A stretch of DNA of 45,813 nucleotides from an uncultured Clostridia bacterium (GCA_937873555.1 CALMWN010000410.1:1-45813); one strand, 5' to 3'. Shown: positions 16,305-42,489, numbered from the stretch's first letter. Notes: generated by a model not told the origin, from the letters alone. Program-made: numbers and translations.

Positions 16305-16309
16305 GAGTT

Positions 16310-17302
16310 ATGGTCAACATGAATATCAACAATGAAAATATAGCTTTTTACAAAAATCTCGTCGCGCAGTTCCTATCCTACAAACGGGCGCAGGGATACA
16401 AATATAAAGCAAACGAGGAAAGTTTGAACAGATTCATCAAGTTTTTAGTTGCCTTCGGACTGACGGAATGCCGACTCTCAAAGGAACTGGTTGAAGCATA
16501 TGCCATCAAGCGCCCCGACGAGGCACCCAAGAATCATGCAAACAGGGTAAGCGATTTTAGACAGTTCGTCATATATTTGAATGAGCTCGGGTACGAGGCA
16601 TATATTCCAACTGTAAGCAAGGTCTCAAAACGCTCATCATCCTTCGTCCCGTACATATTTACACATGATGAGATTTCAAGAATTTTTCAGGTGGTTGACA
16701 GGTTGAAGCCCAATTCACGTTACAACAGTGCGATTGTTTATCCGGTATTGATAAGAATGCTATACGGATGTGGTTTGAGAATTTCGGAAGCACTTGATTT
16801 GAGAGTGGGAGATGTAGATTTGGTCAATGGTGTCCTGACTATAAAAAAATCAAAATTTGATAAGGACAGGCTTATACCCATGTCGGAGTCTTTGAATTCC
16901 ATATGCAAAAGATTCCTCAAGCAGATGCACAAGAACTCAGCCGAAAATGACTACTTTTTTAAAAACAGAAATGGCAGCCGACGTAGTAAAAACACAGTAT
17001 ACCATCGATTTCGTGAAATTCTTTGGTCAAGTGGAATTTCTTACGGTGGTAAAGGCAAAGGGCCGAGACTTCATGATATGAGGCATGTATTTTGCTGTCA
17101 TTCATTAAAAGAAATCTCCGATAAAGGCATTGACTTGTACTGCGCATTACCGGTATTATCCACCTACCTGGGGCATAGTTCGGTAACGGCAACAGAAAAA
17201 TATCTCAGACTAACAGAGGAATTATACCCCGACATAATTAAACGCATGAATGGCACCACCTCGTATGTTTACCCGGAGGTGTATAAAGTTGAAGCCTACT
17301 GA
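16310..17302 (+). CDS. tyrosine recombinase, second of trio (RitB position)
   Basis: 330 aa. GCGLRISEAL...HDMRHVF...LGHSSVTATEKYLR. Confidence 0.85.
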   Translation: MVNMNINNENIAFYKNLVAQFLSYKRAQGYKYKANEESLNRFIKFLVAFGLTECRLSKELVEAYAIKRPDEAPKNHANRVSDFRQFVIYLNELGYEAYIPTVSKVSKRSSSFVPYIFTHDEISRIFQVVDRLKPNSRYNSAIVYPVLIRMLYGCGLRISEALDLRVGDVDLVNGVLTIKKSKFDKDRLIPMSESLNSICKRFLKQMHKNSAENDYFFKNRNGSRRSKNTVYHRFREILWSSGISYGGKGKGPRLHDMRHVFCCHSLKEISDKGIDLYCALPVLSTYLGHSSVTATEKYLRLTEELYPDIIKRMNGTTSYVYPEVYKVEAY

Positions 17303-18305
17303 TTTCGCATATTACCTTACTAATTTTCTGTCCAAATACCTGCCGTGCATTGAAGGATGTAGTGTGAATACGATTTCAGCTTATCGGGATGCGTTCAAAT
17401 TGCTGCTGATGTTTGCAAGGGAGAGGGAAGGCATAAAAGAGGAAAAACTGGAACTGTCTCTAATTGACAAAGCCTTCGTCATACGTTTTTTGTTATGGAT
17501 TGAAAATGAACGCGGTTGTGCTGTTATTACAAGAAATCAAAGGTTGGCTGCAATTCATGCGTTCTATTCGTATCTTCAAAGAGAATTGCCGGAACGCATG
17601 TACCAGCTTCAGGAGGTTTTATCAATACCCTTTAAAAAGCACCCACAGAAAACAGTAAATTTCTTCTCAACCGAAGGAATTAAAGCTCTTCTTGCGGAAC
17701 CAAACATAAATACAGAAAGCGGCCGAAAGCATCTTGTGCTTCTAAGCTTAATGTATGCAACCGGCAGCCGTGTACAGGAAATTGCTAATCTGACAGTATC
17801 GGATGTCATGTATAACGGTAATTCTCTTGTGAAGCTGACGGGAAAAGGAAACAAAAGCAGATTTGTACCTCTGGAGCCTCCTGTTGTTAAATTACTCTGC
17901 CAGTATCTCGAAGATTTTTCATTGATTGACCCTTTCAGAAGGATGGAATTGCTGTTTACAAATCACTCACAAAAAAAGTTAACGCGGCAAGGCATAACCC
18001 ATATTCTTAAAAAATATGCTGACAAAGTGAGAAAAAAGCGGCCTGAACTGATACCTGGAACCGTTTCACCGCATTGCCTTCGGCACTCACGAGCAGTCCA
18101 TTGGCTACAGGCTGGAGTGGATTTGATATACATCAGAGATTTATTGGGCCATACCAGTGTTCAAACCAGTGAAATTTATGCACGTATTGATGGGGAAATG
18201 AAAAGAAAAGCTTTAGAAAAAGTTTCTTCACATGCTATCCCAAATGAAATGCCGTCATGGCAAAAAGACAAATCATTAATGGAATGGTTGAAAGAATTGG
18301 ATTAA
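17250..18305 (+). CDS. tyrosine recombinase, third of trio (RitC position)
   Basis: 351 aa. ATGSRVQEI...HCLRHSRAVHW...LGHTSVQTSEIYAR. Overlaps the previous gene; exact start uncertain (17250, 17265 or 17289). Confidence 0.8.
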   Translation: MAPPRMFTRRCIKLKPTDFAYYLTNFLSKYLPCIEGCSVNTISAYRDAFKLLLMFAREREGIKEEKLELSLIDKAFVIRFLLWIENERGCAVITRNQRLAAIHAFYSYLQRELPERMYQLQEVLSIPFKKHPQKTVNFFSTEGIKALLAEPNINTESGRKHLVLLSLMYATGSRVQEIANLTVSDVMYNGNSLVKLTGKGNKSRFVPLEPPVVKLLCQYLEDFSLIDPFRRMELLFTNHSQKKLTRQGITHILKKYADKVRKKRPELIPGTVSPHCLRHSRAVHWLQAGVDLIYIRDLLGHTSVQTSEIYARIDGEMKRKALEKVSSHAIPNEMPSWQKDKSLMEWLKELD

Positions 18306-20175: not shown

Positions 20176-20271
20176 GCTGTTAGTAGAAATTTACAAAGTC
20201 AAGTAGGTATAATGTAATAAAAGTGGTTTAGATTAAGTATACAGTTTAAATACATGGAGGCTTTAAGTAGT

Positions 20272-21840
20272 ATGAACAATGAAAAGTATTACATTACAAC
20301 TGCAATCGCATATGCCTCACGTAAACCTCATATTGGAAATACCTATGAGGTTGTGTTAGCTGATGCTATTGCACGGTTCAATCGTCTTATTGGTTATGAT
20401 GTCTTTTTTTTGACTGGAACTGACGAGCATGGTCAAAAAATACAAAAGCAGGCAGAAATACAAGGTATTTCACCGCAAGAGCACGTGGATATAATTACTG
20501 ATGAGATACGCAGAATTTGGGACCTTATGAATATAAGTTATGACAAATTTATTAGGACTACCGACATCTATCACAAAGAAACAGTACAAAAAATTTTTAA
20601 AAAACTCTATGAGCAAGGCGATATATATCAATCTTCATATGAGGGTTGGTATTGTATACCTTGCGAATCCTTTTTTACAGATACTCAGATTACCAATAAT
20701 AAATGCCCAGATTGCGGGGGTATTGTTGAGAAATCCAGCGAAGAGGCCTATTTTTTTAAAATAGGTAAATACGCTAATCGACTTGAGAAATACATCGAAC
20801 GAAACCCCAATTTTATACAACCAGAGTCTCGTAAAAATGAAATAATTAGAAACTTTATACAAGTAGGACTACAGGATTTATGCGTATCTCGCACCTCCTT
20901 TTCATGGGGTATTCCAGTGAGTTTTGATAGCAAGCATATAATATATGTTTGGATTGATGCTTTGTCTAATTATATTACTGCGCTCGATTACAACCCCGAT
21001 GGTGAAAGTGGAGACCTCTTTAATAAATATTGGCCAGCAAATGTACATTTAATTGGTAAGGATATTCTACGTTTTCATACTATTTACTGGCCTATAATGC
21101 TTATGGCTCTTAATATTGAATTACCCAAGCAGATATTTGGTCATCCATGGCTCCTATATGGTACTGAAAAGATGTCTAAGTCTAAATGTAACGTAATATA
21201 TGCAGAGGATTTGGTCAGACACTTCGGTGTTGATGCTGTTCGTTATTACTTGTTGCATGAGATGCCCTTTGCACAGGATGGAACAATAACATATGAACTT
21301 TTAATAAGCCGAATTAATTCAGATCTTGCCAACATCCTTGGTAATCTTGTGAATCGTTCTATCGCAATGGTAGAAAAATATTTTTGTGGTATAATTCCTT
21401 TTTGTGGGGCTCTAGAAAGTATTGATAAGGAACTTATTGAATTTGCTCTTTCAGTTCCTTCAAAAGTTGAGAAGCAAATGGAACATCTACATGTATCTGA
21501 TGCACTTGATGAAATATGGTCACTGCTTAGACGAACTAATAAATATATCGATGAAACCGCACCTTGGCTACTTGGCAAAGAAGAAAACAAAAAGGAACGT
21601 CTGGGTACAGTACTTTACAATTTGCTTGAATGTATACGATTTGCCTCAGTATTAATTTTACCATTTTTACCCGAAACGGCTCAAAATATTCAGACACAAA
21701 TAAATGCCAAAAATATTACATGGGAATCACTTTCGAATTTTGTTGGCACTATTTCTGGCAAAGAAGTTAACAGGGAAAAACCTCTATTTAATCGCATTGA
21801 CGAAAAGGAAAAGATAATAGAAATTGAACTGAACCAATAA
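20272..21840 (+). CDS. metG: methionine--tRNA ligase, short form without C-terminal tRNA-binding domain
   Basis: KYYITTAIAYASRKPHIGN (HIGH-type), a CIPC...CPDCGG zinc knuckle, KMSKS and an anticodon-binding helical C-terminus. Start set at the second ATG (the ORF track starts at 20254). Confidence 0.9.
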   Translation: MNNEKYYITTAIAYASRKPHIGNTYEVVLADAIARFNRLIGYDVFFLTGTDEHGQKIQKQAEIQGISPQEHVDIITDEIRRIWDLMNISYDKFIRTTDIYHKETVQKIFKKLYEQGDIYQSSYEGWYCIPCESFFTDTQITNNKCPDCGGIVEKSSEEAYFFKIGKYANRLEKYIERNPNFIQPESRKNEIIRNFIQVGLQDLCVSRTSFSWGIPVSFDSKHIIYVWIDALSNYITALDYNPDGESGDLFNKYWPANVHLIGKDILRFHTIYWPIMLMALNIELPKQIFGHPWLLYGTEKMSKSKCNVIYAEDLVRHFGVDAVRYYLLHEMPFAQDGTITYELLISRINSDLANILGNLVNRSIAMVEKYFCGIIPFCGALESIDKELIEFALSVPSKVEKQMEHLHVSDALDEIWSLLRRTNKYIDETAPWLLGKEENKKERLGTVLYNLLECIRFASVLILPFLPETAQNIQTQINAKNITWESLSNFVGTISGKEVNREKPLFNRIDEKEKIIEIELNQ

Positions 21841-24507: not shown

Positions 24508-25007
24508 ATCATGCTCCCTGGTTAAAATTAACAAGACAACATGTTAAGTATATACGGAATTCCGAATAAAAGCAAGATATTAGGCCTAGAACCACCGTAA
24601 TATGCTCATGAAGCAACTAAAAGAACAGTATATATGAATAAATAAATCGTTTGTTTTATTGTCGGATAGATCAAGTTGCTTTTTGCATGAAAGGAGGAAT
24701 TCAAGTATCAAAAGTAATCGACCTTGACAATCAAAAAGGTGATATGTGATAAATGATCACAGCGGTAGATCAAAGAATCGGTCTTGCATTAAGGATAAAA
24801 AGTTACTGTGAGTGATTAACTGATGGTCATGCAGGACAATAAACAGCAGCAAAAAAAGAGAACCTTCACTGTGATTACAGATCTGGACATTGTATAGACC
24901 TTTTGTTTTTAAGTAAAATATATAAATTGATTTAAAAATTAACTATCATAAACATATAAAACTAGCAATGATTGGCAATAATTTTTATAAAAACATTTGG
25001 TGAGCTT

Positions 25008-25860
25008 ATGTGTAATGAAGAAAGTTACTTAAAAGAAGGTTCTTGTTTCTCCCGCAGTAAACTGTATAACATAGAACCTATAGGATTAAATACAGCGTAT
25101 ACGGAGAGCCTGACAAGTTATATTACTAGGATTTCAAAAGCTCATTCTGTATATGTCGGAACATTAATAAAATTAGAGCTGGCACCAATACTTGATAAGT
25201 ATTATATTTTGAACAGCTCATTCAACGGAGGAAATAGTTTCTACAGTTACACACATATATTAAATGGTAATGGCAAAAATGCGGATGATTTTGCTAATGC
25301 GCTTTCTGAAATGGTATGTAGAAAAGACATTCTTTTCACAACAATGCTCTCTTACCGGAATGTGATTCCTTATCAAGGTTTATCAAAAAATACAGCTTCA
25401 TGGTGTCCGTTTTGCCTTGAAGAATGGAGAATTGCAAATAAACCGATATATATGCCTTTGGCTTGGACTTTGAAAGTAAGTAACATCTGCAATATACATA
25501 ATACAAGGCTGGTGAGCAGATGTCCTATATGTAATAGCAAGATTCCATTTCTGCACAGAAAAATTTGTAATGGTTACTGTCCAAGGTGTAGAGCATGGTT
25601 GGGCAGAGGATACGATCAAAATGTAAGTCAGTTAATAAAAACAGACGACTGGGAGAAATGGGTGAATTGTAATATTGGTGAGTTAATTTCCATGGCTCCA
25701 GTTATAAGCATTCTTCCTTCCAGAGAAATATTGGAGGAGAATCTAAAACATATAATTAATACATCTAACAATATAACTCGTTTAAGTAAATTGACGGAGA
25801 TTCCAAAGTCAACAGTTTGGTATTGGGCAAATGGTAAGACTATTCCACGCTTGGATAAAT
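25008..25860 (+). pseudogene. tniQ: TniQ-family target selector (paralog 1), 5' part, interrupted by IS66
   Basis: The pattern SRSKLYNIEPIGLNTAYTESLTSYITRISKAH plus WCPFC...RCPICN...YCPRCRAWLG is shared with the TniQ at 31934. Confidence 0.75.
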
Positions 25861-27578
25861 GTTACTGCTCAGCCATTGACAAAATTGACGTACTAAGCAG
25901 ATGGTAATATTTTATCAATGAAAAGTCCCCAATTCAACCAATATAATAGTATCAAAGGTTGAATGGCGGTGAATATAGTGGATGAGTCATTAATAATAAA
26001 AACCTACAATGAAGGTATAAATTCAGTTATAACTCTTGTTAAAGAATCAATGGCGGGGCTAAATAAAGAGATATTTGATTTGAAGCTTGAAAACCAGAAA
26101 CTAAACGAAAGAATTACAGAGCTTGAAGCCCGCCTTAACAAAAATAGCAGCAACAGCAGCAAGCCTCCCTCATCAGACGGATACAAAAAGCCTCAAAACA
26201 GCCGGCAGAAGACAGGGAAGCCTACCGGTGGCCAGTGGGGCCACGAGGGAAAAACACTGGAAAAAGTGCAAAATCCTGATGAAGTGATTGAGTATAAAAC
26301 CCCGGGAGACTGTGATTGTGGTTGTGAATTGAATAACGTCAAGTGTACAAAGAAAACCCGGCAGGTATTTGATATCCCAAAACCCAAGATACGGGTAACA
26401 GAGCATGTTACCTACGAGGTAGTGTGCCCAAAATGCGGGAAGGTGCACAAAACAGATTTTCCGCCACAGGTTAGCCAACCTACACAGTATGGTGCAAATA
26501 TGCAGGCATTGATGAATTACCTCACACTATACCAGTTGATCCCCCTTGAAAGAGCTGCTGACACAATAAAGAATTTCACTGGACAGACGGTAAGTGAGGG
26601 GACCTTGGTAAATGCGGCATACGGGCTGTATAACAAGCTGGAAAACCCGGTAGAGGAAATTAAGCAACAGATCACCGATTCCGATGTAGCTCATTTTGAT
26701 GAGACGGGAATGAGAGCCCAAGGGCAAACCAAATGGTTGCATGTAGCTTCCACGGAGAACCTGACCTATTATGCCGTGCATGACAAACGTGGAGAAAAGG
26801 CTGCCAAAGACATCGGCATTCTGCCGCACTTTACGGGCACAGCCGTACATGACCACTGGAAGCCCTACTACCGCTTCATTGGATGCACCCATGGAGAATG
26901 CAATTCCCATCATCTGCGTTCCCTGAAGGATGTAGTTGAAAACTACCATCAGGAATGGGCAGATAAAATGGCGGACCTGTTGATTGAAATCTATCGCAGA
27001 GTAGAGGGCTTAAAGGAACAGGGTTTTACCAAAATGCCTGAGGAAGAAACAAAAATATGGTATGGCCGGTACCATAAAATTCTAACCGAAGGTATTACGG
27101 AAGATTCCATGAAAAGCCCGCAAGTACTGAATAAAAAGGGCAAACTGAAGAAAAGCAAGCCATTGCAGTTACTGCTAAAGCTTCAGCAGTTTGATATTGA
27201 AACCTTGGCCTTCATGTATGATTTTGACGTGCCCTTCCATAACAACTTGGCCGAACGGGACTTGAGGATGCAGAAGCTCCGGCAGAAGATATCAGGATGT
27301 TTCCGCGGAAAGGATGGGGCCAACGTATTTAGCCGGGTAAGAAGCTATTTATCCACGGCAAAGAAAAATGGAATTGATGCGATGGAGGCCATTGTATTGG
27401 CAGTAAAAGGGCAGCCATTTGTCCCTGTAAGGTAGGCGTATTCAGTTTTACACACTCAGGGGATGCCGGAATGGTATCCCTTGTTTTTCGACCCGATCTG
27501 GTCGGTGACATCACGCGCATAGGTGATGGTCTAATCCTACCATGAAACCGGGTCTGTTTGGAATGCCTGAGCAGTTAC
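25861..27578 (+). mobile_element. IS66-family insertion sequence (single-ORF type)
   Basis: Terminal inverted repeats are GTTACTGCTCAGCCATTG at the left and, as reverse complement, GTAACTGCTCAGGCATTC at the right. A perfect 8-bp target duplication GGATAAAT sits at 25853-25860 and 27579-27586. Confidence 0.9.
25963..27435 (+). CDS. IS66-family transposase
   Basis: 490 aa. Leucine-zipper N-terminus ending NSSNSSKPPSSDGYKKP, a CPKCG zinc finger and an HFDETG DDE region. Confidence 0.9.
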   Translation: MAVNIVDESLIIKTYNEGINSVITLVKESMAGLNKEIFDLKLENQKLNERITELEARLNKNSSNSSKPPSSDGYKKPQNSRQKTGKPTGGQWGHEGKTLEKVQNPDEVIEYKTPGDCDCGCELNNVKCTKKTRQVFDIPKPKIRVTEHVTYEVVCPKCGKVHKTDFPPQVSQPTQYGANMQALMNYLTLYQLIPLERAADTIKNFTGQTVSEGTLVNAAYGLYNKLENPVEEIKQQITDSDVAHFDETGMRAQGQTKWLHVASTENLTYYAVHDKRGEKAAKDIGILPHFTGTAVHDHWKPYYRFIGCTHGECNSHHLRSLKDVVENYHQEWADKMADLLIEIYRRVEGLKEQGFTKMPEEETKIWYGRYHKILTEGITEDSMKSPQVLNKKGKLKKSKPLQLLLKLQQFDIETLAFMYDFDVPFHNNLAERDLRMQKLRQKISGCFRGKDGANVFSRVRSYLSTAKKNGIDAMEAIVLAVKGQPFVPVR

Positions 27579-27586
27579 GGATAAAT

Positions 27587-28077
27587 TATTGCTTTTAGGA
27601 TATGTTTTTGGATTCAGGTTGCCAGATGTTTTTTTAAAAACTGATAATTTAACTAGGGAAAACGATATAAATGTTGTTAAGATTAATTCTGACATTTCGG
27701 GAACAAAACAAAAAAGAAAAAAGCTTGATTTTGAGAATATGAAAATAAGTTTGGAAACATATTTGAATGCTGAACATCCTTTACCAATGATAGAAGTCGC
27801 AGAAAAAATAGGCGTTAATAAGAGGATTATACTAAGATACTTTCCTGATTTATGCAAACAGATTTCAAAAAGATATAAGGAGCATTTAAGCAATAAAAGT
27901 AATCAAAGGAAAGTACATCTTTGCCACATCATTGAAGATGTCATTGAACGTTTGATAAAAGATAATGAGTACCCCAGTAGAAGGAAAATTGAATTAAATT
28001 TACCGGATGGGATAATACTAAAAGATAGTAGGTTTAAATCAATATGGAAATCAAAGCTGGAAGAGTATGGGCTATAA
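27587..28077 (+). pseudogene. tniQ: TniQ paralog 1, 3' part
   Basis: In frame with 25008..25860 once the IS and one duplication copy are removed (853+491 nt = 448 codons). The C-terminal HTH-like segment EVAEKIGVNKRIILRYFPDLCKQISKRY parallels AVAKRLGISVRTIQKRLPDLSRQISKKR of TniQ paralog 2. Confidence 0.75.
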
Positions 28078-28135
28078 AGAATTTTTATCAAAAAGTATTT
28101 GCTTATAAAGTAGGTATGGAAGGTGTCTATTTATT

Positions 28136-30796
28136 ATGTTTAGTGAAAAAGAATTTGATGTGTGGAGTATTGAAAATAAAATACAAAATGCCGCAAAAAC
28201 ATTAATTCAAAATATAAGAAATTCTCAACCTAGTAGAGTTGTCGGTGGAGGTAAATACAATGTATCTGGTAGGTATCCAAGTAGGAAAATGAGACTGACA
28301 ATACAATTTGAAAGCCATCGTGTTGAACTTGCTTCGATTTATGAGAAGGAACATGATCCTGATATTTTAGAATACTATGATCAGCCACCTTCAATAAAAC
28401 TTAACTACCCAACAAAGGACGATAAAAATATTGGAGTAATGTCTACACCGGATTTTTTTGTTATTCACAAGAATGGTGCATACTGGGAGGAGTGGAAAAC
28501 GGAAGAGGAACTATTAAAGCTTTCTGTCCGTTCTCCAAATAGGTATGTCAGGGAGAAAAACGGTACATGGAGATGCTCACCGGGAGAAGAGTATGCAGCA
28601 AAGTATGGTTTGCAATACAAGTTAAGGTCTTCTTCAGAAATTGATTGGATTTTTCAAAGGAATATCATTTTCCTGGAAGATTATTTAACAGATGCTTCAA
28701 CAGTTGTTACTGAGAATGCAAAAAGAGAAATAGAAACTTTGATAGGTGAAAATCTCGGAGTTTTATTATCTGAATTAATTACAAGTACAGCAAATGCAAC
28801 TTCAGATGATATTTATTTAATGATCAGTAGAGAAGAAATATACGTTGATATTTATAAGAACTGTATAGCTGAGCCTGACACAGTAAAAGTATATAGAAAC
28901 TTAGAGCATGCAAAAGCATATGGAAATATCATTGAAAGCAATTATGAATCCATATATGAAATATCTACTATGAATATTGAGGTTGGGCAAAGAGTACTTT
29001 GGGATGGAGTTCGGTGGATGATTATTAATGTTGGCGAATATGATATATCTTTGTCTTCAGATACAAAAAAGTATATTAATTTACCGAATGATATTTTTGA
29101 AGCATATGCAAATCAGGGTAGGATAAAAGGAATTAACAATGACAATGATATATATCCGGCTGCAAAACATAAGGATATTATTTTAAAAGCCGATAAAGAA
29201 GATCTGGAAATTGCAAATTACCGGTATAAGTGTGTTAAAAAAGTGTTGAGTGGACAGGAATCAGATCAATTACAAGTTCCTGCCAGGACAATAAGACGTT
29301 GGATAAAAAGTTTTAAGGATGCACAAGAGATTTATGGCAATGGTTATGTTGGATTAATACCGGATCATAAAATGAAAGGAAACAGAACTAATAAATTGCC
29401 GGACGAATCATTAGAAATAGCAAATGAATTTATAGAGAATGATTATGAAACGAAAAAACAGAAGTCAAGATTTGCTGTTTATGGTGCTCTACTTAATGAA
29501 TGTGAAAAAAGAGGATTACTTGCACCCAGTTATAAGACTTTCTGTAATATGATTAATAATAGAAAAAAAGAGGAACAAGTAAAAAAAAGGATGGGAAATC
29601 GAGCTGCTTACAAGTATGAAAAATTTTATTGGGAATTAACACTGACCACTCCAAGGCATGGAGACCGGCCTTTTGAAATAGGACATATTGATCATACTGA
29701 ATTGGATTTGGAATTAATTCACTCCCGCATACATAGAAATTTAGGAAGGTGTTGGATTACATTCTTATCTGATGCGTTTGCCAGGAGAATTCTATCAGTA
29801 TATGTTACATTTGATCCACCAAGCTATCGTTCAGTTATGATGGCTCTTCGTGAATGTGTTAGGAGACATAACAGACTGCCACAATCAATAGTAATTGATG
29901 GGGGGAAGGAATTTAACAGTGTATACTTCGAAACTTTTTTAGCACACTATGAGGTTTTGAAAAAACAAAGGCCTCCAGCTAAAGCCCGATTTGGATCAGT
30001 TATTGAAAGGCTATTCGGGACAACTAATACTGAATTCATTAACAATTTACATGGTAACACGCAGATTATGAAAAATGTCAGGCAGGTAACAAAAAGTGTC
30101 AATCCAAAACAGCATGCAATATGGACTTTGAATCTTTTGCATGAAAGGCTCTGTATTTGGGCCTATGAGGTATATGATACAATTGAACATCCGGCTTTGG
30201 GACAAAAACCACGAGATGCTTTTCAATTAGGTATGACAACATCGGGGAGTCGACCCAAGAGGTTTGTTCCATTTGATGATATCTTTAAGATAATCTCCCT
30301 GGCGACCACGGGAAAAGGTTGTGCTAAAGTCCAGGTTGGACAGGGAGTTAGAATAAATTGTTTATACTATTGGTCGGATCTGATGAAAGATCCGGGAGTT
30401 GAGAATAAACAGGTTCCAATTCGTTATGATCCTTATGATATTGGAATAGCATATGCTTATATAAAAGGGAACTGGGTAAAATGTATTTCAGAATACTATT
30501 CAATACTCAAGGGAAGGACAGAAAAAGAGTTGCAGATGATTACTGAAGAGATTAGAAAACAGAAGAAAAATTCATCTATGAAAGTAAGTATTACTGCAAA
30601 AAAAATTGCTAAATTCATCAGGGAAAATGAAGAAATTGAAGCTATTCAAATGCAAAGGCTAAAGGATTTTGAAGCAAAACAGGTATTTAACAACATTGGA
30701 AATCAATGCGAAGAATCCAAGGAAAACATAGAAAAAGATATTTGTTTTGAAGAAAATGCTAATATTAAAAACTTAAGTGTTTATGGAGTTTACTGA
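28136..30796 (+). CDS. fused TnsA-like endonuclease / TnsB (TniA)-like DDE transposase
   Basis: The N-terminus has QFESHRVE...STPDFFVIHKNGAYWEEWK (TnsA-type E...D...ExK). Beyond it come an HTH region, GHIDHTELD, IVIDGGKEFNS and NTEFINN (DDE) and a long Mu-transposase-like C-terminus. Total 886 aa. Confidence 0.75.
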   Translation: MFSEKEFDVWSIENKIQNAAKTLIQNIRNSQPSRVVGGGKYNVSGRYPSRKMRLTIQFESHRVELASIYEKEHDPDILEYYDQPPSIKLNYPTKDDKNIGVMSTPDFFVIHKNGAYWEEWKTEEELLKLSVRSPNRYVREKNGTWRCSPGEEYAAKYGLQYKLRSSSEIDWIFQRNIIFLEDYLTDASTVVTENAKREIETLIGENLGVLLSELITSTANATSDDIYLMISREEIYVDIYKNCIAEPDTVKVYRNLEHAKAYGNIIESNYESIYEISTMNIEVGQRVLWDGVRWMIINVGEYDISLSSDTKKYINLPNDIFEAYANQGRIKGINNDNDIYPAAKHKDIILKADKEDLEIANYRYKCVKKVLSGQESDQLQVPARTIRRWIKSFKDAQEIYGNGYVGLIPDHKMKGNRTNKLPDESLEIANEFIENDYETKKQKSRFAVYGALLNECEKRGLLAPSYKTFCNMINNRKKEEQVKKRMGNRAAYKYEKFYWELTLTTPRHGDRPFEIGHIDHTELDLELIHSRIHRNLGRCWITFLSDAFARRILSVYVTFDPPSYRSVMMALRECVRRHNRLPQSIVIDGGKEFNSVYFETFLAHYEVLKKQRPPAKARFGSVIERLFGTTNTEFINNLHGNTQIMKNVRQVTKSVNPKQHAIWTLNLLHERLCIWAYEVYDTIEHPALGQKPRDAFQLGMTTSGSRPKRFVPFDDIFKIISLATTGKGCAKVQVGQGVRINCLYYWSDLMKDPGVENKQVPIRYDPYDIGIAYAYIKGNWVKCISEYYSILKGRTEKELQMITEEIRKQKKNSSMKVSITAKKIAKFIRENEEIEAIQMQRLKDFEAKQVFNNIGNQCEESKENIEKDICFEENANIKNLSVYGVY

Positions 30797-31968
30797 TGAC
30801 AAAGAATAGTGGCTTCCCCATATGTTTATTGGAACAACCAATTGAGAACAGAGCAAAATATTTTCACGAATTTACTGTAGCTCACCCCTTACTAGTGAAG
30901 TCTACAAAACAGGTATTAGATACGATTAAAAACCCGGAAGGATATTCAATTTTTATGGTAATTGGACCGACTGGTGTCGGGAAAACCACATTAAGAAAGA
31001 AGGTCGAGAAAATTGTTATTCAGGAAATGCTATCAGAAATGGAAAATGATAAAAGTTTCATTCCGATAGTGGGAATGGAAATCGTTTCACCTGACTCAGG
31101 AAAGTTTAGCTGGATAGATTATTATAAAAGAGCACTTCAAGAATTAAATGAACCAATGATTGACAAAAAAATTGATTATGATCAGCTTTTTTTAAAATCT
31201 AATTTTAAAAGTAAATATGCACTTACAAGTAAAAAAACAACTGCTATGGAATTGAGGAAATCCTTGGAAAGTGCTTTTCATTATAGAAGGACAGTTACAT
31301 TTCTTATTGATGAGGCACAACATTTTACAAAAATGGCTAGTGGTAGAAGATATCAGGACCAACTTGATACAATAAAATCCTTATCAAATATGACAAATGT
31401 TATCCATGTTTTAATTGGGACATATGAGCTGCTGCCTTTTGTCAACTTAAGCGGGCAATTAAGCCGTAGAACTATTGATATACACTTTCCCCGGTATAAA
31501 GCTGATAGCAATGATGACCTATATATATTCAATAGTGTATTAAAAACATTTGAGAGCCATATGCCTCTAGAAAAAGAAAGTAACCTTATTAAGTATTGGG
31601 ATTTCATTTATGAGAGAACAATAGGATGTGTAGGTATTCTGAAAAATTGGTTGGAGAGGTGCCTTAATGAAGCCTTACATGAAGGTTATAAATCAATAGA
31701 TTTTGAATTGCTAAAAAAACACTCACTTTCTCTTTCTAAAGCCGAGAAGATGGCTATTGAAGCAATTGAAGGTGAATCTACTCTAGAAGATAATGAAGAA
31801 AAAAAGATAAATCTGCATAAAATACTTGGTATAAATTCTTCGAATGGTGAAAAAACTACAAATATCGACAAATGTGGTAAAAGTGTAGGGAAAAATAAGA
31901 AAAAACATAATGTAGGTCAGCGAAAACCGATGCGTGATGAAGTTGGACAATTGGAGAAAGCAAAATAA
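30796..31968 (+). CDS. tnsC: TnsC/TniB-type AAA+ transposition ATPase
   Basis: VIGPTGVGKTTL (Walker A) and FLIDEAQHF (Walker B). The ATG overlaps the upstream stop (ATGA). Confidence 0.8.
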   Translation: MTKNSGFPICLLEQPIENRAKYFHEFTVAHPLLVKSTKQVLDTIKNPEGYSIFMVIGPTGVGKTTLRKKVEKIVIQEMLSEMENDKSFIPIVGMEIVSPDSGKFSWIDYYKRALQELNEPMIDKKIDYDQLFLKSNFKSKYALTSKKTTAMELRKSLESAFHYRRTVTFLIDEAQHFTKMASGRRYQDQLDTIKSLSNMTNVIHVLIGTYELLPFVNLSGQLSRRTIDIHFPRYKADSNDDLYIFNSVLKTFESHMPLEKESNLIKYWDFIYERTIGCVGILKNWLERCLNEALHEGYKSIDFELLKKHSLSLSKAEKMAIEAIEGESTLEDNEEKKINLHKILGINSSNGEKTTNIDKCGKSVGKNKKKHNVGQRKPMRDEVGQLEKAK

Positions 31969-33364
31969 TAAATATATATCTTTTCAGGATCTTGACTTAG
32001 AGCTTCCGAATTTTTCAAAAAGAAGCAGGTTTTACTCATTGGATCCAATTGGAGTTGGAACACCTAATGTAGAGAACTTTACGAGCTACATTAACAGACT
32101 AGCTATCACACATAAAATTACTGTAAGTAGTCTGTTACAGTGCCTAATAAAAGAGGAGAGGGGAAATAATAGTTCTTTCAATATTCCGCATTTGAATTCA
32201 TTTTATAGAAATAATAGTACTGCTTTAAATGGTGTTAGTAGTAAATCAAATATTTTTTTAACAGCATTTAGTAATCAAGTGTGTAAAAATAATTTATCAA
32301 GTCTAACTTTAGTACCTTGGAGTAGTGTTTTACCTCAACACAACCTTATTAGAAGAATGAAGGGCTATTGCCCATTTTGTTATGAATATTTAAAAAAAAA
32401 TAACATTGAAATTTATGATCTATTATTATGGTCTTTTAGTTCTCTAACTATTTGCCCAGTACATAAAACAAAACTTCAATTTAACTGTACATATCATGAT
32501 TGCGGAAAGGTTCAATATAATTTAGATACTTGTTCGAGACCGGGATACTGCAATAAATGTCATCGTTGGTTAGGAAATGATTTTGCTGATCTAAAAAGAG
32601 ATGAAGAAGTGATGATTAATTTAGATTTCCAAGTTTGGGCTGCAGATCAAATTGGTAAGATAATATCAGAAACGAATAAATTGAAATCTTTACCCAGACG
32701 CGAGAATATTATGATAGCTTTAAATATATTAAAGAATAAGTATTTTAATGATTCTATTCCAAATATTTCAGAATTTTTCAATATACCTATAGCCAGTATA
32801 AGATTTTGGTGTGAAGGTAGGTGGATACCAAACATAGAAGCTTTATTAATAATATGTTATAGAATGCAAATATCTTTATTAGATTTATTAAAATACGGGA
32901 TACTGACAAAAGAATCGGAATGTGTGTTTCATATTGAAAATCAGAATGTGGATTATAAAAGGCGAGATTTTAAAAAAGCTATAATTGATGAAAACAAATT
33001 ACGTACAGATTTGCAAAATATTTTAGATAGCAATGAGATACCACCGCCACCCTTAACTGCAGTCGCAAAAAGGCTTGGTATATCTGTTAGGACAATACAA
33101 AAAAGATTGCCAGATCTGTCTAGGCAAATATCAAAAAAAAGGTTTGAATATAGAAAGTTGGAAAAGACAAAAAGACAAGAACAGTTTTATAAAGAAATAA
33201 AAGCTGCTGTAATTCAAATAACTAATGATGGATTATATCCAAACATTTTAAGAATAAGTGATTATATATCTAAATCACCACTTGTATTTTATGAATTTGA
33301 ATCATTAAAAGTTTGGAGAGAAATAATGGCTGAATTATCTCTTGAGCCTAAAATTGAAAAGTAA
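31934..33364 (+). CDS. tniQ: TniQ-family target selector (paralog 2, intact)
   Basis: RSRFYSLDPIGVGTPNVENFTSYINRLAITH, YCPFC...ICPVH...YCNKCHRWLG. Overlaps the 3' end of tnsC. Confidence 0.8.
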   Translation: MMKLDNWRKQNNKYISFQDLDLELPNFSKRSRFYSLDPIGVGTPNVENFTSYINRLAITHKITVSSLLQCLIKEERGNNSSFNIPHLNSFYRNNSTALNGVSSKSNIFLTAFSNQVCKNNLSSLTLVPWSSVLPQHNLIRRMKGYCPFCYEYLKKNNIEIYDLLLWSFSSLTICPVHKTKLQFNCTYHDCGKVQYNLDTCSRPGYCNKCHRWLGNDFADLKRDEEVMINLDFQVWAADQIGKIISETNKLKSLPRRENIMIALNILKNKYFNDSIPNISEFFNIPIASIRFWCEGRWIPNIEALLIICYRMQISLLDLLKYGILTKESECVFHIENQNVDYKRRDFKKAIIDENKLRTDLQNILDSNEIPPPPLTAVAKRLGISVRTIQKRLPDLSRQISKKRFEYRKLEKTKRQEQFYKEIKAAVIQITNDGLYPNILRISDYISKSPLVFYEFESLKVWREIMAELSLEPKIEK

Positions 33365-33480
33365 TTCTATTTAGAGTAATATCAACTCTATTATAACTCA
33401 GGTATTACTTATATTTTGATATATTTTTAGAAAATGTTATAATATTTATAGAAAAAAATTTATCACAGATAAAAAATTCT

Positions 33481-33595
33481 GGCAAGCTTATGCTTCAAAA
33501 AATTAATCTTGGCAAATATATGCTTCAAAATGCAATATTCTATCTCTTGAAAATAGGTTCAAAGGTACCTTTTTCGGCTAACTTATGGTTCAAAA
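33481..33595 (+). repeat. three direct 20-bp repeats GGCaAnnTTATGcTTCAAAA (candidate transposase-binding sites / transposon end)
   Basis: GGCAAGCTTATGCTTCAAAA at 33481-33500, GGCAAATATATGCTTCAAAA at 33511-33530 and GGCTAACTTATGGTTCAAAA at 33576-33595. A partial copy lies near 33553-33566. Confidence 0.5.
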
Positions 33596-33691
33596 CGTGG
33601 CCACTTTATAATTCAATTCACATGTATTAAAAACGTACGAAATATATAGCTAATAGAAAAGGAAGCAATCCTATTAATTTAAAAAGGGGTA

Positions 33692-34599: not shown

Positions 34600-35604
34600 A
34601 TGAACCAGCTATTATTAAAGGAAATTCCTGTATATGTGCAGGAATTTCTAAGACACATTCAAGTTAAAAAAGGAGCTTCTTTGAAAACCGTTGAGGATTA
34701 CTTTTATGAATTACGGCTGTTTTTGAGGCTTTATAAAAAGAATAAAAGTCATCTGCCTTCAGAATCCGGACTTGATAACATAGACATCCTTGACATTCAA
34801 TTGAAAGACTTGGAAAACTTAAAAACAACCGAGCTTACAGAATATTTAGCATATATAAAACCTTTAAAACAAGATAATCCGAAAGCCAATAAAAAATCAA
34901 TTACTAACGATGCTGACAGAGCTCCTGCTAAAAGAACAAAATCAAAGCGTCTGGCCTGTTTGAAATCATTCTTTAATTATTTGGAAATAACTGCAGAGTT
35001 GATAACCCGAAATCCTACACGGAAGGAAAGCCACATAAAGTTAGATAAGAGGGAAGTAAAATACCTGACCGACGAAGAGAGCATCAAGCTTCTGAGTGTA
35101 ATAAAAGGTGAGCACCATCAAAGGGACTATGCAATAATAACATTGTTTTTAGTATGTGCCTTGCGATTGTCTGAATTGGTAGGAATTAATTTGAGCCATA
35201 TCCAGAACAATGTTTTAACAGTAATAGGGAAGGGAGACAAGGAGAGAAAAATACCTCTTTCAGCATCATGTACCAGGGCAATAGATTCTTATAAAAGAGT
35301 ACGTCCCAAAAGCACGCAAGATAAGGATGCACTATTTCTTAGTGAAAGGCTACAAAGAATCAGTAAAAAAACAGTACAGTATATGGTCAAGAAATATATT
35401 GCCGCTGCCGGCCTGGATGTGAAAAAATATTCAACCCATAAACTTCGTCACACTGCAGCAACTCTAATGTATCTGCATGGCAATAAAGACCTCCGGGCCC
35501 TACAGGAACTTCTTGGTCATGAGGATATTTCAACAACTCAGGTGTATACGCATATAAGGGATAAGGAAAAGAGAGATCTGATTAACAGTAACCCTTTGGC
35601 ATGA
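34600..35604 (+). CDS. tyrosine recombinase (XerC/XerD-like or integrase)
   Basis: ALRLSELVGI...HKLRHTAATLMY...LLGHEDISTTQVYTH. AAGGAG lies 7 nt upstream. Confidence 0.85.
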   Translation: MNQLLLKEIPVYVQEFLRHIQVKKGASLKTVEDYFYELRLFLRLYKKNKSHLPSESGLDNIDILDIQLKDLENLKTTELTEYLAYIKPLKQDNPKANKKSITNDADRAPAKRTKSKRLACLKSFFNYLEITAELITRNPTRKESHIKLDKREVKYLTDEESIKLLSVIKGEHHQRDYAIITLFLVCALRLSELVGINLSHIQNNVLTVIGKGDKERKIPLSASCTRAIDSYKRVRPKSTQDKDALFLSERLQRISKKTVQYMVKKYIAAAGLDVKKYSTHKLRHTAATLMYLHGNKDLRALQELLGHEDISTTQVYTHIRDKEKRDLINSNPLA

Positions 35605-35905: not shown

Positions 35906-37456
35906 TTACCAATCAATCCCTAATTCGATTAACATATCATCTTTTTTTATCTCGGTAACATTTCTGTCGATATAATCATTTTTGTTTTTAAATATAGTAT
36001 TATTTTTTATATAATACGTTTTTTTGCTTGATAAAATTATGTCTACCTCGGTTGCTTTCCAGAGCAGTTGATAATCATTATTTTTTATTAATCTTAATAG
36101 CTCCTTTTTACTAAGTTCTCTATCAAAACATTGATTCTTAATACTTGCCATAGACCTATAATACTTGCCTTCATATTTACAGAATATTAGTTGTTTTGAA
36201 GTAAGAGCATCAACTATTTTCATATCACCAAGTTCTATATCAAATACTTTTTCACAATTTGCTTTAACCGCGTGAATAGTGTTTTCAACTGGTTCTTCTT
36301 CAATTAACTGTCCGTTTTTAAATATTTGATAATAGTCTGCAAAATAGACGTACTCAGTACCTAATTCCGTATTAATCTTGAAAAAGGAGCAATTCAACTT
36401 ACGATACTGATTTATTAGTGCGGATATGGAACGAAAATCATAATGGCTTGTATTACTTGTTAGAAATTTACCGAGATCAGCCATAGAGTCATATATTTTA
36501 TCCCTAAAGAGTAGTTTTGTTTTTTCCTTATATTTCTCCTTAACCTCAGATTCCTTGTTTAACTCATCGATTTGGGCTTGAATTTCATTTTTGGACAGCT
36601 TTAAGTAATCATCCTCGAACCGCCATATGTCTCTTTTGTAATGCTCTTTTTTCCCCTTACATACATCACTAATGTATCCATAGCTGCGCTTTGAATAATA
36701 ATACTGTTCAGCGGCCTCTAACATAGAATTGTATCTTACCCCTGTATTTAGGCACACTACAGGTTTCGACAAATGAAGTTTTGCAGATTCATTCATCAAC
36801 TTTAAATGTTCTGGAGATATTACTTTTCCTTTATTAGCATCCGATATTTTCTTTTTCTGCTCATCTGTCGGGCTCCATGAACCTTTATTATTTTTTCTAA
36901 CTTCTCTAGCTTTTTCCATTGGTGTTTTTTTAAATACTTGATCTTCTAAATCCTGAGAGACGGTTGAATCAATTTTATTACCCTGATTATGATTTATTAT
37001 TTCTTTAAACCTATCTAATCTTTCCTTTGTTAATGTTGTGGCAGCTCTCCAATATTCTTCGTATAATTTATTTAGATCATCAAAGCAAGTGTCATCATAG
37101 GGTATTCCAAAATTAATTTCACGGTTATTTTTTAGACCTCCATTCGTAAAATTACTCGATCCTACTATTATATATAATTCATCAAACACAAAAATTTTAG
37201 AATGAAAATTCTGCTCTGTAAAAAATTTTATTGTGATATTTGGATTATTAATTATCTTTTCCAATGCAAAATATGATGTAGCAATGCATAATCGTACAAC
37301 CAATCTTATTTTACTGTTATTATCAATCAACTTATTGAGAAATTCATTTTCGGTGAAAAATGGGGCTGCAATTGATACACGCGGGCAGTTACTATAATTC
37401 AATAAAGTATTTATGAGATAATCTTCTTTATCTATTGAATTGGTAAACAATTCCAT
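35906..37456 (-). CDS. PLD-family (HKD) nuclease fused to NUMOD-type homing-endonuclease DNA-binding modules
   Basis: The N-terminus has HSKIFVFDELYIIVGSSNFT (HxK..D..GSxN). The middle has SPTDEQKKKISDANKGK and SPEHLKLMNESAK (NUMOD3-like), then KPVVCLNTGVRYNSMLEAAEQ...ISDVCKGKKEHYKRDIWRFED (NUMOD1/IENR-like). Further degenerate repeats follow. Confidence 0.65.
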   Translation of the reverse strand: MELFTNSIDKEDYLINTLLNYSNCPRVSIAAPFFTENEFLNKLIDNNSKIRLVVRLCIATSYFALEKIINNPNITIKFFTEQNFHSKIFVFDELYIIVGSSNFTNGGLKNNREINFGIPYDDTCFDDLNKLYEEYWRAATTLTKERLDRFKEIINHNQGNKIDSTVSQDLEDQVFKKTPMEKAREVRKNNKGSWSPTDEQKKKISDANKGKVISPEHLKLMNESAKLHLSKPVVCLNTGVRYNSMLEAAEQYYYSKRSYGYISDVCKGKKEHYKRDIWRFEDDYLKLSKNEIQAQIDELNKESEVKEKYKEKTKLLFRDKIYDSMADLGKFLTSNTSHYDFRSISALINQYRKLNCSFFKINTELGTEYVYFADYYQIFKNGQLIEEEPVENTIHAVKANCEKVFDIELGDMKIVDALTSKQLIFCKYEGKYYRSMASIKNQCFDRELSKKELLRLIKNNDYQLLWKATEVDIILSSKKTYYIKNNTIFKNKNDYIDRNVTEIKKDDMLIELGIDW

Positions 37457-37609: not shown

Positions 37610-38023
37610 TTATATCAACTTATTATATATAAACGTAAATCTGAGCCACTCAAAAATTTGAATTAACTCTCGGACTTCATAATTAGGCAGTCGTTTTTTG
37701 TTAGGGTTATTAACTTCTTGATTATGTACATGAAAGGGTTCCGTGACTGTCTGATCTTTTTTATCCGGATGCGATTCGCTATGAAACCTTATATGATCCT
37801 CAGCTCCGTTACAGCGAAACAAATCATAGAAGTATATATCAATTTTGCCGTCTTTAATATATTCCGTAATGTAAAATTTGGAACCATCAATCAAAGTATA
37901 CGTTTTTCTTCTTATAGAATAACTAGAAGGTAATCCAGTCTTATCAAAGTCTTTTTCGTTCTGGATAATATCCTTAAATCTCGCACTAATAAGAGTGAAA
38001 TTCGAAGGCGGCAAATTAGTCAT
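37610..38023 (-). CDS. TumE/DUF6516-like putative toxin
   Basis: The pattern HIRFHSESHPDKKDQTVTEPFHVH...ELIQIFEWL resembles the TumE family as I recall it. The start overlaps the upstream gene by 8 nt. Confidence 0.35.
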   Translation of the reverse strand: MTNLPPSNFTLISARFKDIIQNEKDFDKTGLPSSYSIRRKTYTLIDGSKFYITEYIKDGKIDIYFYDLFRCNGAEDHIRFHSESHPDKKDQTVTEPFHVHNQEVNNPNKKRLPNYEVRELIQIFEWLRFTFIYNKLI

Positions 38024-38841: not shown

Positions 38842-39023
38842 AATGTTGATATGTTTGTGTCCCGGATTCCATGACAGAAAGTTATCAACATTATATTTTT
38901 AGGACACAAAGTTCGCAACATTGTAACCGATCGTTGATATCTTTGTGTCCTGGGCGCATAGTTGCACATTGAATTAATCAATGTTGATAGCATTGTGTCC
39001 TGAATGTTGATATGTTTGTGTCA
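38842..39023. repeat. array of five 21-bp iteron-like repeats AATGTTGATAnnnTTGTGTCC
   Basis: Direct copies at 38842, 38931, 38980 and 39003, and an inverted copy at 38901-38922. A half-site AATGTTGATAAC lies inverted at 38881-38892. Confidence 0.8.
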
Positions 39024-41404: not shown

Positions 41405-41836
41405 TCATACCTCAACTCCGAAGTTCTCCTTCAGGTATTTCTTGCACTCCTCGACATCAACCTCTACCTTAACCTCTGCATCTGAATCTTCACTCTCATC
41501 ATCTTCGGCCCAAAATCTCCAGTCTATCTTAAGTTCCGGTACTGAAGATTCTTCAAGCTGAATAGGTATCAATACAGGTAATAACACCTCTTGCAGATAC
41601 TCCTGATCTGTACACTTGAATACGAATCCATACGAAGTATTCAAAAAGAATTGGTCGAGTTCTGTAGTAATAGTTATTTCAGGCACATATTGGGTAGCCT
41701 GTATTATCCCTGCAATTTGTTCCGGATTTTTCTCAATCACCAATGCCGGTGCACGATTACCATTACTATCATAGATATAAACTAATAATTTTTCATCCCT
41801 CACTAAACTCATCCTCCTTATAATTTGATTAATCAT
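41405..41836 (-). CDS. hypothetical protein with acidic C-terminal region
   Basis: The ATG overlaps the stop of the radical-SAM gene (ATGA). Contains WAEDDESEDSDAEVKVEVDVEE. Confidence 0.6.
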   Translation of the reverse strand: MINQIIRRMSLVRDEKLLVYIYDSNGNRAPALVIEKNPEQIAGIIQATQYVPEITITTELDQFFLNTSYGFVFKCTDQEYLQEVLLPVLIPIQLEESSVPELKIDWRFWAEDDESEDSDAEVKVEVDVEECKKYLKENFGVEV

Positions 41837-42489
41837 AGGCCTCTAGCGCAGTATTCGCATTCCGGATTTCGTCTGAGCTCTTCCATGATTGCAAACACTG
41901 ATTCCTTTGACTGCGGTTCGGCTTCCTCCCTGTGCAGCTGGATAACAAACTTTCTGCAACCGGCTACCGACTTACTGATCTCATGTATGTCTTCCCCTGT
42001 CAGTCCTGGAACAAGAGTAGTACGGAATTCATGGTCTACACCACTTTCAGATATGAGCTTGATTGATTTTTCTATCTTTCTGGTATCCACACTGCAGCCG
42101 ACAATCTCCTCATACCTGTGAATGGGCGCCTTGATGTCCATAGCCACGTAGTCCAGAACCGGGAGGACTTCTTCAAGAACTTCCGGATTGGTACCATTTG
42201 TGTCCAGTTTTACCATAAAGCCCAGCATTTTAAGCCTTATTACAAAAGTGTAAAGGTCTTTATAAATAGTTGGTTCACCGCCGCTAATACATATAGCATC
42301 AAGCTTTCCAATCCTAGACTTAAGGAAGCTGAAAACCTCGTCCTGAGATATAAGTTGAGTGCCTAAGGTTTCCTTACTGAAGCAATAAGCGCAATTTAAG
42401 TTGCACCCCTTCGTATATACAACTCCACATATCTTGCCAGGATAGTCCTCATTGCTCGTTTTAGTAATAGCTGAATAATACATTATCAA
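41833..42489 (-). CDS. NrdG-type (class III RNR activase-like) radical SAM protein
   Basis: DYPGKICGVVYTKGCNLNCAYCFS, ISGGEPTIY, KLDTNGTNPEVLEEV, DYVAMDIKAP, EFRTTLVPGL. This is the pattern of the about 230-aa NrdG2-type activases. Confidence 0.75.
   Translation of the reverse strand: MIMYYSAITKTSNEDYPGKICGVVYTKGCNLNCAYCFSKETLGTQLISQDEVFSFLKSRIGKLDAICISGGEPTIYKDLYTFVIRLKMLGFMVKLDTNGTNPEVLEEVLPVLDYVAMDIKAPIHRYEEIVGCSVDTRKIEKSIKLISESGVDHEFRTTLVPGLTGEDIHEISKSVAGCRKFVIQLHREEAEPQSKESVFAIMEELRRNPECEYCARGL

Follow-up and report, generated by a model that had tools for sequence, protein, structure and literature searches.

We analysed a stretch of 45,813 nucleotides from an uncultured Clostridia bacterium (GCA_937873555.1, CALMWN010000410.1; the 45.8-kb window, over the whole of which positions are counted), which carries the tns region of a Tn7-like transposon on its plus strand between 24.9 and 33.6 kb (Table 1). 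A TnsD-like target selector (Q1), split by an insertion sequence (IS), is followed by a fused tnsAB gene, the AAA+ regulator gene tnsC, a second and intact TnsD-like selector (Q2) and a transposon right end, with no further open-reading frame (ORF) found between Q2 and that end. A prior interpretation from the DNA alone (the sequence-only reading) had described a Tn7-like core in which TnsA and TnsB form a single polypeptide, accompanied by a TniB-type TnsC and two TniQ-family genes, an identity with which our profile searches agree. We interpret the region, with considerable confidence, as a Tn7-like transposon's transposition module together with its right end, and assign the element to the TnsA-TnsB-fusion clade and, within it, to a mainly Bacillota sub-lineage; the copy is most likely crippled. 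This reading draws on domain content, matches of all four proteins to PmcCAST (a type I-B2 CRISPR-associated transposon, CAST), invariant catalytic residues, the IS junctions, the right end, synteny and a neighbour-joining (NJ) tree.

Table 1 Features of the Tn7-like locus and the evidence for each (aa, amino acids).
Feature	Position	Strand	Evidence
Q1 5′ part (TnsD-like selector, N-terminal 284 codons)	25008..25860	+	Pfam TniQ 6.4e-15; gene callers start at 25008
IS66-family IS, 1,718 bp	25861..27578	+	Pfam domains; junctions read and script-checked
Q1 3′ part, C-terminal 163 codons including C-terminal helix-turn-helix region	27587..28077	+	In-frame joining after IS removal
tnsAB, natural TnsA-TnsB fusion, 886 aa	28136..30796	+	Pfam, homologues, 9BW1 match
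tnsC, AAA+ regulator, 390 aa	30796..31968	+	Pfam AAA_22 and TniB; PmcCAST TnsC match
Q2, downstream TnsD-like selector, 476 aa, intact	31934..33364	+	Pfam TniQ 4.5e-12; PmcCAST TnsD match
Transposon right end, four sites, terminus ...TTCACA	33481..33622	+	Pattern and position weight matrix scans; alignment with relatives

The ORF listing contains tnsAB as the single uninterrupted frame that had been reported. Towards its N-terminus, Pfam TnsA-like_N (PF08722) matches residues 74-164 with 33.3 bits against a cut-off of 26.5, so that the profile test proposed for this part of the protein gave a significant result; Mu-transpos_C was also matched, and rve scored 26.5 bits, under its gathering cut-off of 32.6. 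Across an alignment of 19 homologues the motifs QFES (57-60), TPD (104-106), EEWK (118-121) and DHT (D519) are invariant, as is D588, in keeping with the TnsA-type nuclease pattern that had been recognised by eye. Residues E59, E64, D106, E118/E119 and K121, invariant in the same alignment, form a PD...ExK nuclease site, in which E59, D106, E119 and K121 are the predicted TnsA nuclease residues. The DDE triad comprises D519, D588 and E624 (in SVIERLFG), all three invariant; the TnsB/TniA pattern proposed previously was thus right in both aspartates, whilst its glutamate, placed in NTEFI, was the wrong one.

Homologues of TnsAB number 1,739 at E ≤ 1e-5. The best 120 listed measure 880-969 aa, align with 94-100% coverage and 48-58% identity, and belong to cyanobacteria, Chloroflexota, Bacillus/Priestia and Symbiobacteriaceae. 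A genome scan returned 524 stretches encoding a TnsAB relative, 80 of which were fetched, these including Acidobacteriota, Gemmatimonadota, Brocadiia and Pelotomaculum. The nearest relative in the databases searched (locus L003) is 58% identical, on a contig that starts inside the Q1 C-terminus. Residues 5-857 align with chain M of PDB entry 9BW1, the PmcCAST TnsABC structure solved by cryo-electron microscopy (2026 preprint), at ~52% identity (E = 1.6e-294), and the N-terminal 240 aa alone still match it at E = 1.3e-74; the entry also contains the TnsD component. Judged by these comparisons the TnsA-TnsB fusion is a family trait and not a sequencing artefact, which the homologue family rules out. 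How such a fusion behaves had been called open, yet it has already been tested in relatives: the fused TnsAB of McCAST carries out cut-and-paste transposition and its D106A mutant yields cointegrates (PMC9881144), and the structure of the PmcCAST TnsABC(D) proteins is available in 9BW1. At 52% identity, this solved structure already answers what the proposed structure prediction was to show about fold and active site.

The product of tnsC has a Walker A motif GPTGVGKT (57-64) and a Walker B motif FLIDEAQH (169-176), and aligns over residues 1-385 with PmcCAST TnsC (E = 5e-103); together with its AAA_22 and TniB matches this bears out the TniB-type AAA+ ATPase expected after TnsAB. The 'ATGA' coupling between the two genes does not hold, as the sequence reads TGATG, with the tnsC ATG and the tnsAB stop sharing 1 nt. 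Q2 starts at GTG 31934 (476 aa) or ATG 31937 (475 aa) and overlaps the 3′ end of tnsC by ~32-35 nt, as had been proposed for a 476-aa TniQ at this position, and its residues 17-445 align with PmcCAST TnsD (E = 3e-67).

Q1, the other selector, is no longer intact. Its reading frame is broken after residue 284 of 447 by a 1,718-bp IS, so the upstream TniQ on the same strand, which the sequence-only reading took to be whole, is indeed present and homologous to Q2, but is split in two. The inserted element has the features of the IS66 family: a DDE transposase of the IS66 type, inverted repeats at its termini and a target duplication of 8 bp, the usual size for IS66-family elements. Its one ORF (25963-27435) encodes a 490-aa transposase (Pfam DDE_Tnp_IS66, 4.5e-44; DUF6444; zf-IS66), the imperfect inverted repeats read GTTACTGCTCAGCC at 25861 and GCCTGAGCAGTTAC at 27578, and the perfect duplication GGATAAAT, read from the DNA and checked by script, lies at 25853-25860 and 27579-27586. 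It resembles the single-ORF IS66 members in its domains, its 8-bp duplication and its inverted repeats starting GT(T/A)AC; it carries no accessory tnpA/tnpB ORFs. The GC content is 0.46 over the IS66 gene versus ~0.33 in the surroundings, and a BLAST search of the plasmid collection returned no close nucleotide relative of the IS.

The insertion accounts for the two ORFs found where Q1 once stood: a 311-aa ORF with a TniQ domain (24972-25907), which begins at TTG and whose final 47 nt (15 codons and a stop) belong to the IS, and a 162-aa ORF (27589-28077) to which Pfam gives no match. Deleting the IS and one copy of the repeat fuses the two in frame across the junction CTTGGATAAATTATTGC, giving 447 aa from ATG 25008, a likelier start than the TTG. 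Along its full length the restored Q1 shows 43% identity to the Q1 of L006; it is 48% identical to P0128, and its residues 8-446 align with PmcCAST TnsD (E = 3e-68). The perfect duplication, and the absence of further lesions from both halves, point to a probably recent insertion. It has cut the C-terminal 163 residues, including the helix-turn-helix (HTH) region, off from the N-terminal part, and McCAST lost transposition when its TnsD was deprived of the extreme C-terminal HTH alone (PMC11837452). The IS66-family insertion has inactivated Q1 and left the element one intact selector. The truncated remnant of 299 aa keeps the TniQ core, and we speculate that it might interfere with transposition, since co-expressed TniQ makes the TnsD pathway less efficient in McCAST and CyCAST. 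The closest relative of Q1 (48% identity) is an orphan TniQ gene at 8579-9913 of L096, which has no neighbouring tnsAB or tnsC and is followed by a gene for an Mrr-type nuclease; we take this orphan as evidence of frequent decay in the sub-lineage. The loss of a Tn7-like selector to an IS has a second case in Robertmurraya massiliosenegalensis (L097, 15258-17288), where Q2 ends after 245 aa, interrupted by an oppositely oriented DDE transposase gene.

Both selectors are by sequence TnsD-type, that is, selectors predicted to bind DNA directly, as each aligns with TnsD over TnsD length, whilst the match of Q2 to the small Cas-linked TniQ is confined to its N-terminal ~210 residues, and the restored Q1 behaves alike. 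Q2 has TnsD length as it stands and Q1 has it only after the IS is removed in silico. The two are 28% identical across 417 residues. In an NJ tree of 110 TniQ-family proteins, every upstream Q1 falls into a single clade, whilst the corresponding Q2s occupy neighbouring clades; the cyanobacterial TnsDs come next, and the 329-aa Cas-linked TniQs lie far off. We accordingly regard Q1 and Q2 as paralogues from a duplication within the mainly Bacillota sub-lineage, a clade pattern that matches the scenario of Faure et al. (2023, PMC10293859), in which dual TniQ-TnsD loci arise repeatedly by in-situ duplication. That study counted ~1,000 dual TniQ-TnsD loci, cases with two TnsDs included, and found TnsE only in Tn7 relatives and Tn6022 (379 loci) and CAST systems as scattered groups, whilst non-Cas groups of secondary TniQ have been described in the TnsAB-fusion clade (Hsieh & Peters 2022, PMC9881144). 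The premise that two selectors mean either TnsD with TnsE or TnsD with a Cas-bound TniQ is thus out of date, and the two questions raised with it, on what a second selector recognises and on how the fusion behaves, have largely been answered at family level (PMC10293859, PMC9881144).

Downstream of Q2, four putative TnsAB-binding sites of the form GGC(A/T/C)A..(T/A)TAT(G/A)..T(C/T)AA start at 33481, 33511, 33576 and 33599, all in one orientation and spaced 30/65/23, and a terminal ACA ends at 33622. A position weight matrix (PWM) built from the four sites scored them at 18.7-25.8, versus at most 13.3 elsewhere on either strand of the window, which was also scanned with the pattern, exactly and with up to 3 mismatches. 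The same four-site layout, spaced 30/65/23 or 30/64/23, follows Q2 in L006, L070 and, after cargo, L005, and the terminal ACA occupies the same column in all six right ends aligned (window, L006, L005, L070, L087 and L088). The core had earlier been drawn to end at 33622, and these scans and the six-end alignment put the conserved terminus at exactly that base. Outside it, the 5-bp flank at 33623-33627 reads TGTAT. Two other candidates for element ends were rejected: TGTGAATTGAA at 26323 as a left-end site, which lies inside the IS66 transposase gene and is expected by chance, and a six-copy 20-mer cluster at 38843-39023 as the missing end, which lies outside the right end and whose motif is unrelated to the right-end sites.

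The check for the same four-gene block in related genomes, proposed along with the original description, yielded 12 loci beyond the window. Altogether 13 loci have their genes arranged as Q1(+)-tnsAB-tnsC-Q2, neighbours overlapping or lying a short distance apart; they include L003, the genomes of B. cereus (L005), B. mycoides (L070), Bacillus sp. ISL-37 (L077), Mesobacillus selenatarsenatis (L080) and Robertmurraya (L097/L098), and the metagenomic contigs L006, L087, L088, L090 and L092. A metagenome scan with a Q1 profile gave 9 loci only, mostly like the B. mycoides element. Other orders also occur: the cyanobacterial I-B2 relatives carry TnsD downstream and, upstream, a divergent 329-aa TniQ, and several Acidobacteriota and cyanobacterial loci are ordered AB-C-Q-Q.

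In three relatives, L005 (2961-3030), L070 (1985-2050) and L080 (2131-2200), the left end is a triad of one inverted site followed by direct sites at ~+21 and ~+48, 5.7-8.1 kb upstream of Q1. It starts ~35 bp past the 3′ end of the transfer-messenger RNA (tmRNA) gene, ssrA, and L087 has the same triad 128 nt from its contig start, too little flank for a gene. Such a triad of inverted and direct sites beside the tmRNA gene fits the published description of left ends in the fusion clade, with sites in both orientations and the end proximal to the target (PMC9881144). The searchable Tn7-like literature holds no mention of tmRNA as an attachment site or of the flanking Q1...Q2 gene order. Since the B. 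cereus group has a short Q2 (301-325 aa), which leaves Q1 as its sole full-length TnsD, and the left end lies beside the tmRNA gene, Q1 is the probable tmRNA-homing selector in those relatives. A second cluster of left-end-like sites lies within a few bases of the right end in five relatives (L005 19449; L070 14937-14985; L077 ~15590; L087 14550-14565; L088 10338-10386); these are tandem elements or their remnants at the same attachment site.

From this it is a speculative and rather unlikely further step that the Q1-tnsAB-tnsC-Q2 sub-lineage is an uncharacterised two-TnsD design, with Q1 directing insertion to the tmRNA gene and Q2 serving a second protein-guided pathway elsewhere. Conceivable targets of Q2 include a site on plasmids, other mobile elements or resident Tn7-like ends, the last because a foreign left end recurs right after the right end in relatives. 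Were the design real, the copy in the window would be its natural Q1 knock-out.

If the element works as its homologues PmcCAST and McCAST do, a large TniQ of the TnsD type would bind a fixed DNA site through its C-terminal HTH region and recruit the AAA+ protein TnsC, which would assemble next to it and in turn recruit and activate TnsAB bound at both element ends. With its PD-ExK (TnsA) and DDE (TnsB) sites TnsAB would then excise the element by double-strand cutting, and the element would be inserted at a fixed distance from the bound site with its left end beside the target. With Q1 and Q2 both present, an element would presumably have two protein-guided, fixed-site target specificities; in the window copy the probable homing selector, Q1, would be lost to the IS and Q2 would remain.

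Several observations weigh against parts of this reading. No left-end triad, no inverted site and nothing above background was found on either strand of the window outside 33481-33618, nor did attachment-site scans find a tRNA, tmRNA or Rfam family there, and homologue searches with Q1 and Q2 reached no closer relative that supplied a left end or attachment site. With neither a left end nor a target-site duplication in the window, the completeness, attachment site and mobility of the element cannot be shown. The relatives on which the ssrA assignment is based are only 32-35% identical to the Q1 of the window, for which it is weaker still; the closest relative of Q2 found by homologue searches has ~33-34% identity, and the NJ tree carries no bootstrap support. 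Conserved residues in TnsAB do not prove cut-and-paste transposition here, since PmcCAST TnsAB is reported to give cointegrates although its TnsA domain looks intact, and the truncated Q1, at 299 aa about the length of a natural short TniQ, could retain TnsC binding.

The copy in the window has probably lost its left part, the state that we favour; otherwise it would at best depend on Q2 alone. The possible alternative, which we consider doubtful, is that the element is complete and perhaps mobile through Q2, its left end lying beyond position 1, so that it would exceed 33.6 kb and the DNA from 1 to 24.9 kb would be cargo and nested mobile elements. Its tnsAB, tnsC, Q2 and right end are after all intact, relatives hold cargo between the left end and Q1, and other mobile elements are a known cargo of Tn7-like elements (PMC8649781). 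However, the left end of relatives is only ~5.7-8.1 kb upstream of Q1, neither strand of the window has a left-end-like site above background, and the upstream DNA holds decayed IS fragments (ISL3, IstB, IS630-like HTH) along with sugar-nucleotide and glycosyltransferase genes resembling ordinary host DNA. More improbable is the view of the sequence-only reading that the Tn7-like core is intact, that its two divergent TniQ selectors both function and that the second pathway is neither CRISPR- nor TnsE-based. Two TniQ-family genes on one strand do flank tnsAB-tnsC, cas, CRISPR and TnsE were not found in the window, and the ancestral element had both selectors intact, since removing the IS restores the frame. 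For this copy the idea is nonetheless refuted by the physical split of the upstream TniQ by a 1.7-kb IS with its own transposase, which removes the C-terminal HTH region essential in McTnsD (PMC11837452), and dual TnsD-type selectors without Cas or TnsE are in any case already on record in ~1,000 loci (PMC10293859).

Two further explanations concern how the genes came to lie together. The upstream TniQ might belong to a different, tandemly inserted Tn7-like element, tandem arrays being common and a second left end directly following the right end in relatives; we think this very improbable, as the gap between Q1 and tnsAB is just 58 bp and holds no end sites, the Q1-AB-C-Q2 order with similarly short gaps recurs in the 12 loci outside the window's own, and the Q1 and Q2 clades are sisters in the NJ tree. 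A sequencing or assembly artefact joining separate tnsA and tnsB genes can be practically dismissed. The three assemblies that carry the protein are 100% identical across the 17.9-22.7 kb compared, and therefore give no independent evidence for the fusion or test of it, but full-length homologues in several phyla, the 524 genome stretches with a relative and the solved structure of a natural fusion 52% identical to this one decide the matter; the possibility of a sequencing-derived fusion, raised when the ORF was first described, is thereby ruled out by the homologue family. We thus return to a fusion-clade element, most likely crippled, whose Q1 was lost to an IS.

Within the window, domain scans of most ORFs, an array search and an Rfam scan turned up neither cas genes nor a CRISPR array, TnsE or any Rfam RNA, a few ORFs of at least 100 aa falling outside the scan, and to this extent the earlier statement that cas, CRISPR and TnsE are absent stands. 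That statement also named no resolvase; tyrosine recombinases lie at 34600-35604 and 15069-18305, none of them inside the element core. Upstream of Q1 are a small HTH gene, broken ISL3 transposase ORFs, a methionyl-tRNA synthetase (MetRS) gene, an IS630-like HTH fragment, an IstB fragment and three tyrosine recombinase genes, and further upstream sugar-nucleotide, glycosyltransferase and radical-SAM genes. The recombinase genes at 15069-18305 follow one another (411, 330 and 351 aa, the last two overlapping), with the IstB (IS21 helper) fragment next, and look like an element of the 'recombinase in trio' type. The 528-aa MetRS gene (20254-21840) stands alone among IS fragments (the IS630-like HTH ORF and broken ISL3 ORFs) and is possibly an additional, mobile copy. 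The window also contains a perfect direct repeat of 1,203 bp (10266-11468 and 13242-14444), which surrounds a GC-rich segment of 1,773 bp (GC up to 0.45); its copies hold near-identical ORFs of 383 and 386 aa with a weak HPr-kinase-C-like P-loop match, and it might stem from duplication around an insertion or from faulty assembly.

On the other side, 1 kb beyond the right end, the recombinase gene at 34600-35604 is XerC/D-like, and is followed by genes for a 516-aa PLD-family protein with DrmC/DpdK-like matches (35906-37456), a TumE toxin (37610-38023) and a viperin-like radical-SAM protein (41833-42489), a content that gives the right flank the look of a further mobile or defence island. The 20-mer ATGTTGATATNTTTGTGTCC occurs there in six copies within 180 bp (plus strand 38843, 38931, 38981 and 39004; minus strand 38872 and 38902) and nowhere else in the window, 0.01 being expected by chance. 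The cluster lies 190-370 bp upstream of a minus-strand gene for a 213-aa protein with a weak HTH match, after which comes the TumE-toxin gene, and could represent iterons, operators or the end of an unrelated mobile element; a BLAST search of the 37.6-39.25 kb region against the plasmid collection gave nothing informative.

Alone, the element matters little, as its clade is already characterised structurally and genetically, and it opens no long-standing question. Of modest use for mining Tn7-like elements are the by-products of the comparison: a conserved Q1-AB-C-Q2 operon in Bacillaceae and related metagenomic contigs, a conserved four-site right end, the left end adjoining the tmRNA gene in relatives and two selector genes broken by ISs.

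Hsieh & Peters (2022, PMC9881144) described the TnsAB-fusion clade with its unusual left end and frequent second TniQ; the clade includes the type I-B2 and I-D CASTs as well as many non-CRISPR elements that target tRNA genes. PmcCAST (type I-B2, Peltigera membranacea cyanobiont; 9BW1 / 8V32) shares with the window the natural TnsA-TnsB fusion and, in outline, protein-guided homing via TnsD. Unlike it, the window has no Cascade genes, CRISPR array or small Cas-linked TniQ, and its second selector is a large TnsD-type protein encoded upstream of tnsAB, not divergently upstream. The tns operon of PmcCAST reads towards its tRNA target (tRNA-Val in L023), whereas that of the window points to the right end; the target-side end of PmcCAST would, to judge from L004, where the sequence was read, be the left end. 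Nor does the locus fit a CAST more generally, as the scanned ORFs contain no cas domain, there is no array, and both TniQs are TnsD-length and not of the small, ~330-aa Cas-interfacing kind. McCAST (type I-D, Myxacorys californica) and the non-CAST cyanobacterial tRNA-targeting TnsAB elements belong to the same clade, with the fused TnsAB, the conserved PD...ExK site and a frequent second TniQ, and have in common with the window's relatives a target-adjacent left end with sites in both orientations. The window differs from them in its low-GC and probably Bacillota-like host lineage, the order Q1-AB-C-Q2 and the lack of a left end in this copy, and its Bacillaceae relatives differ in attaching at the tmRNA gene and not at a tRNA gene.

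The dual TniQ-TnsD loci of Faure et al. (2023, PMC10293859) have, as here, two TniQ-family selectors arising by in-situ duplication, without Cas or TnsE; however, their selector genes are in tandem and usually one is large and one small, whereas those in the window are both large (447 and 476 aa) and flank tnsAB-tnsC. With canonical Tn7 (TnsABCDE) the element shares the logic of a TnsA-type nuclease and DDE TnsB, an AAA+ TnsC and a TnsD-type site-specific selector, but canonical Tn7 has separate TnsA and TnsB proteins and TnsE, neither of which the window shows, along with a glmS target and tns genes that lie beside the right end and read inward. The flanking gene order and the tmRNA attachment belong to the relatives and are not demonstrated by the window itself, and the element in the window is a divergent, low-GC and damaged member of an already well-studied fusion clade.

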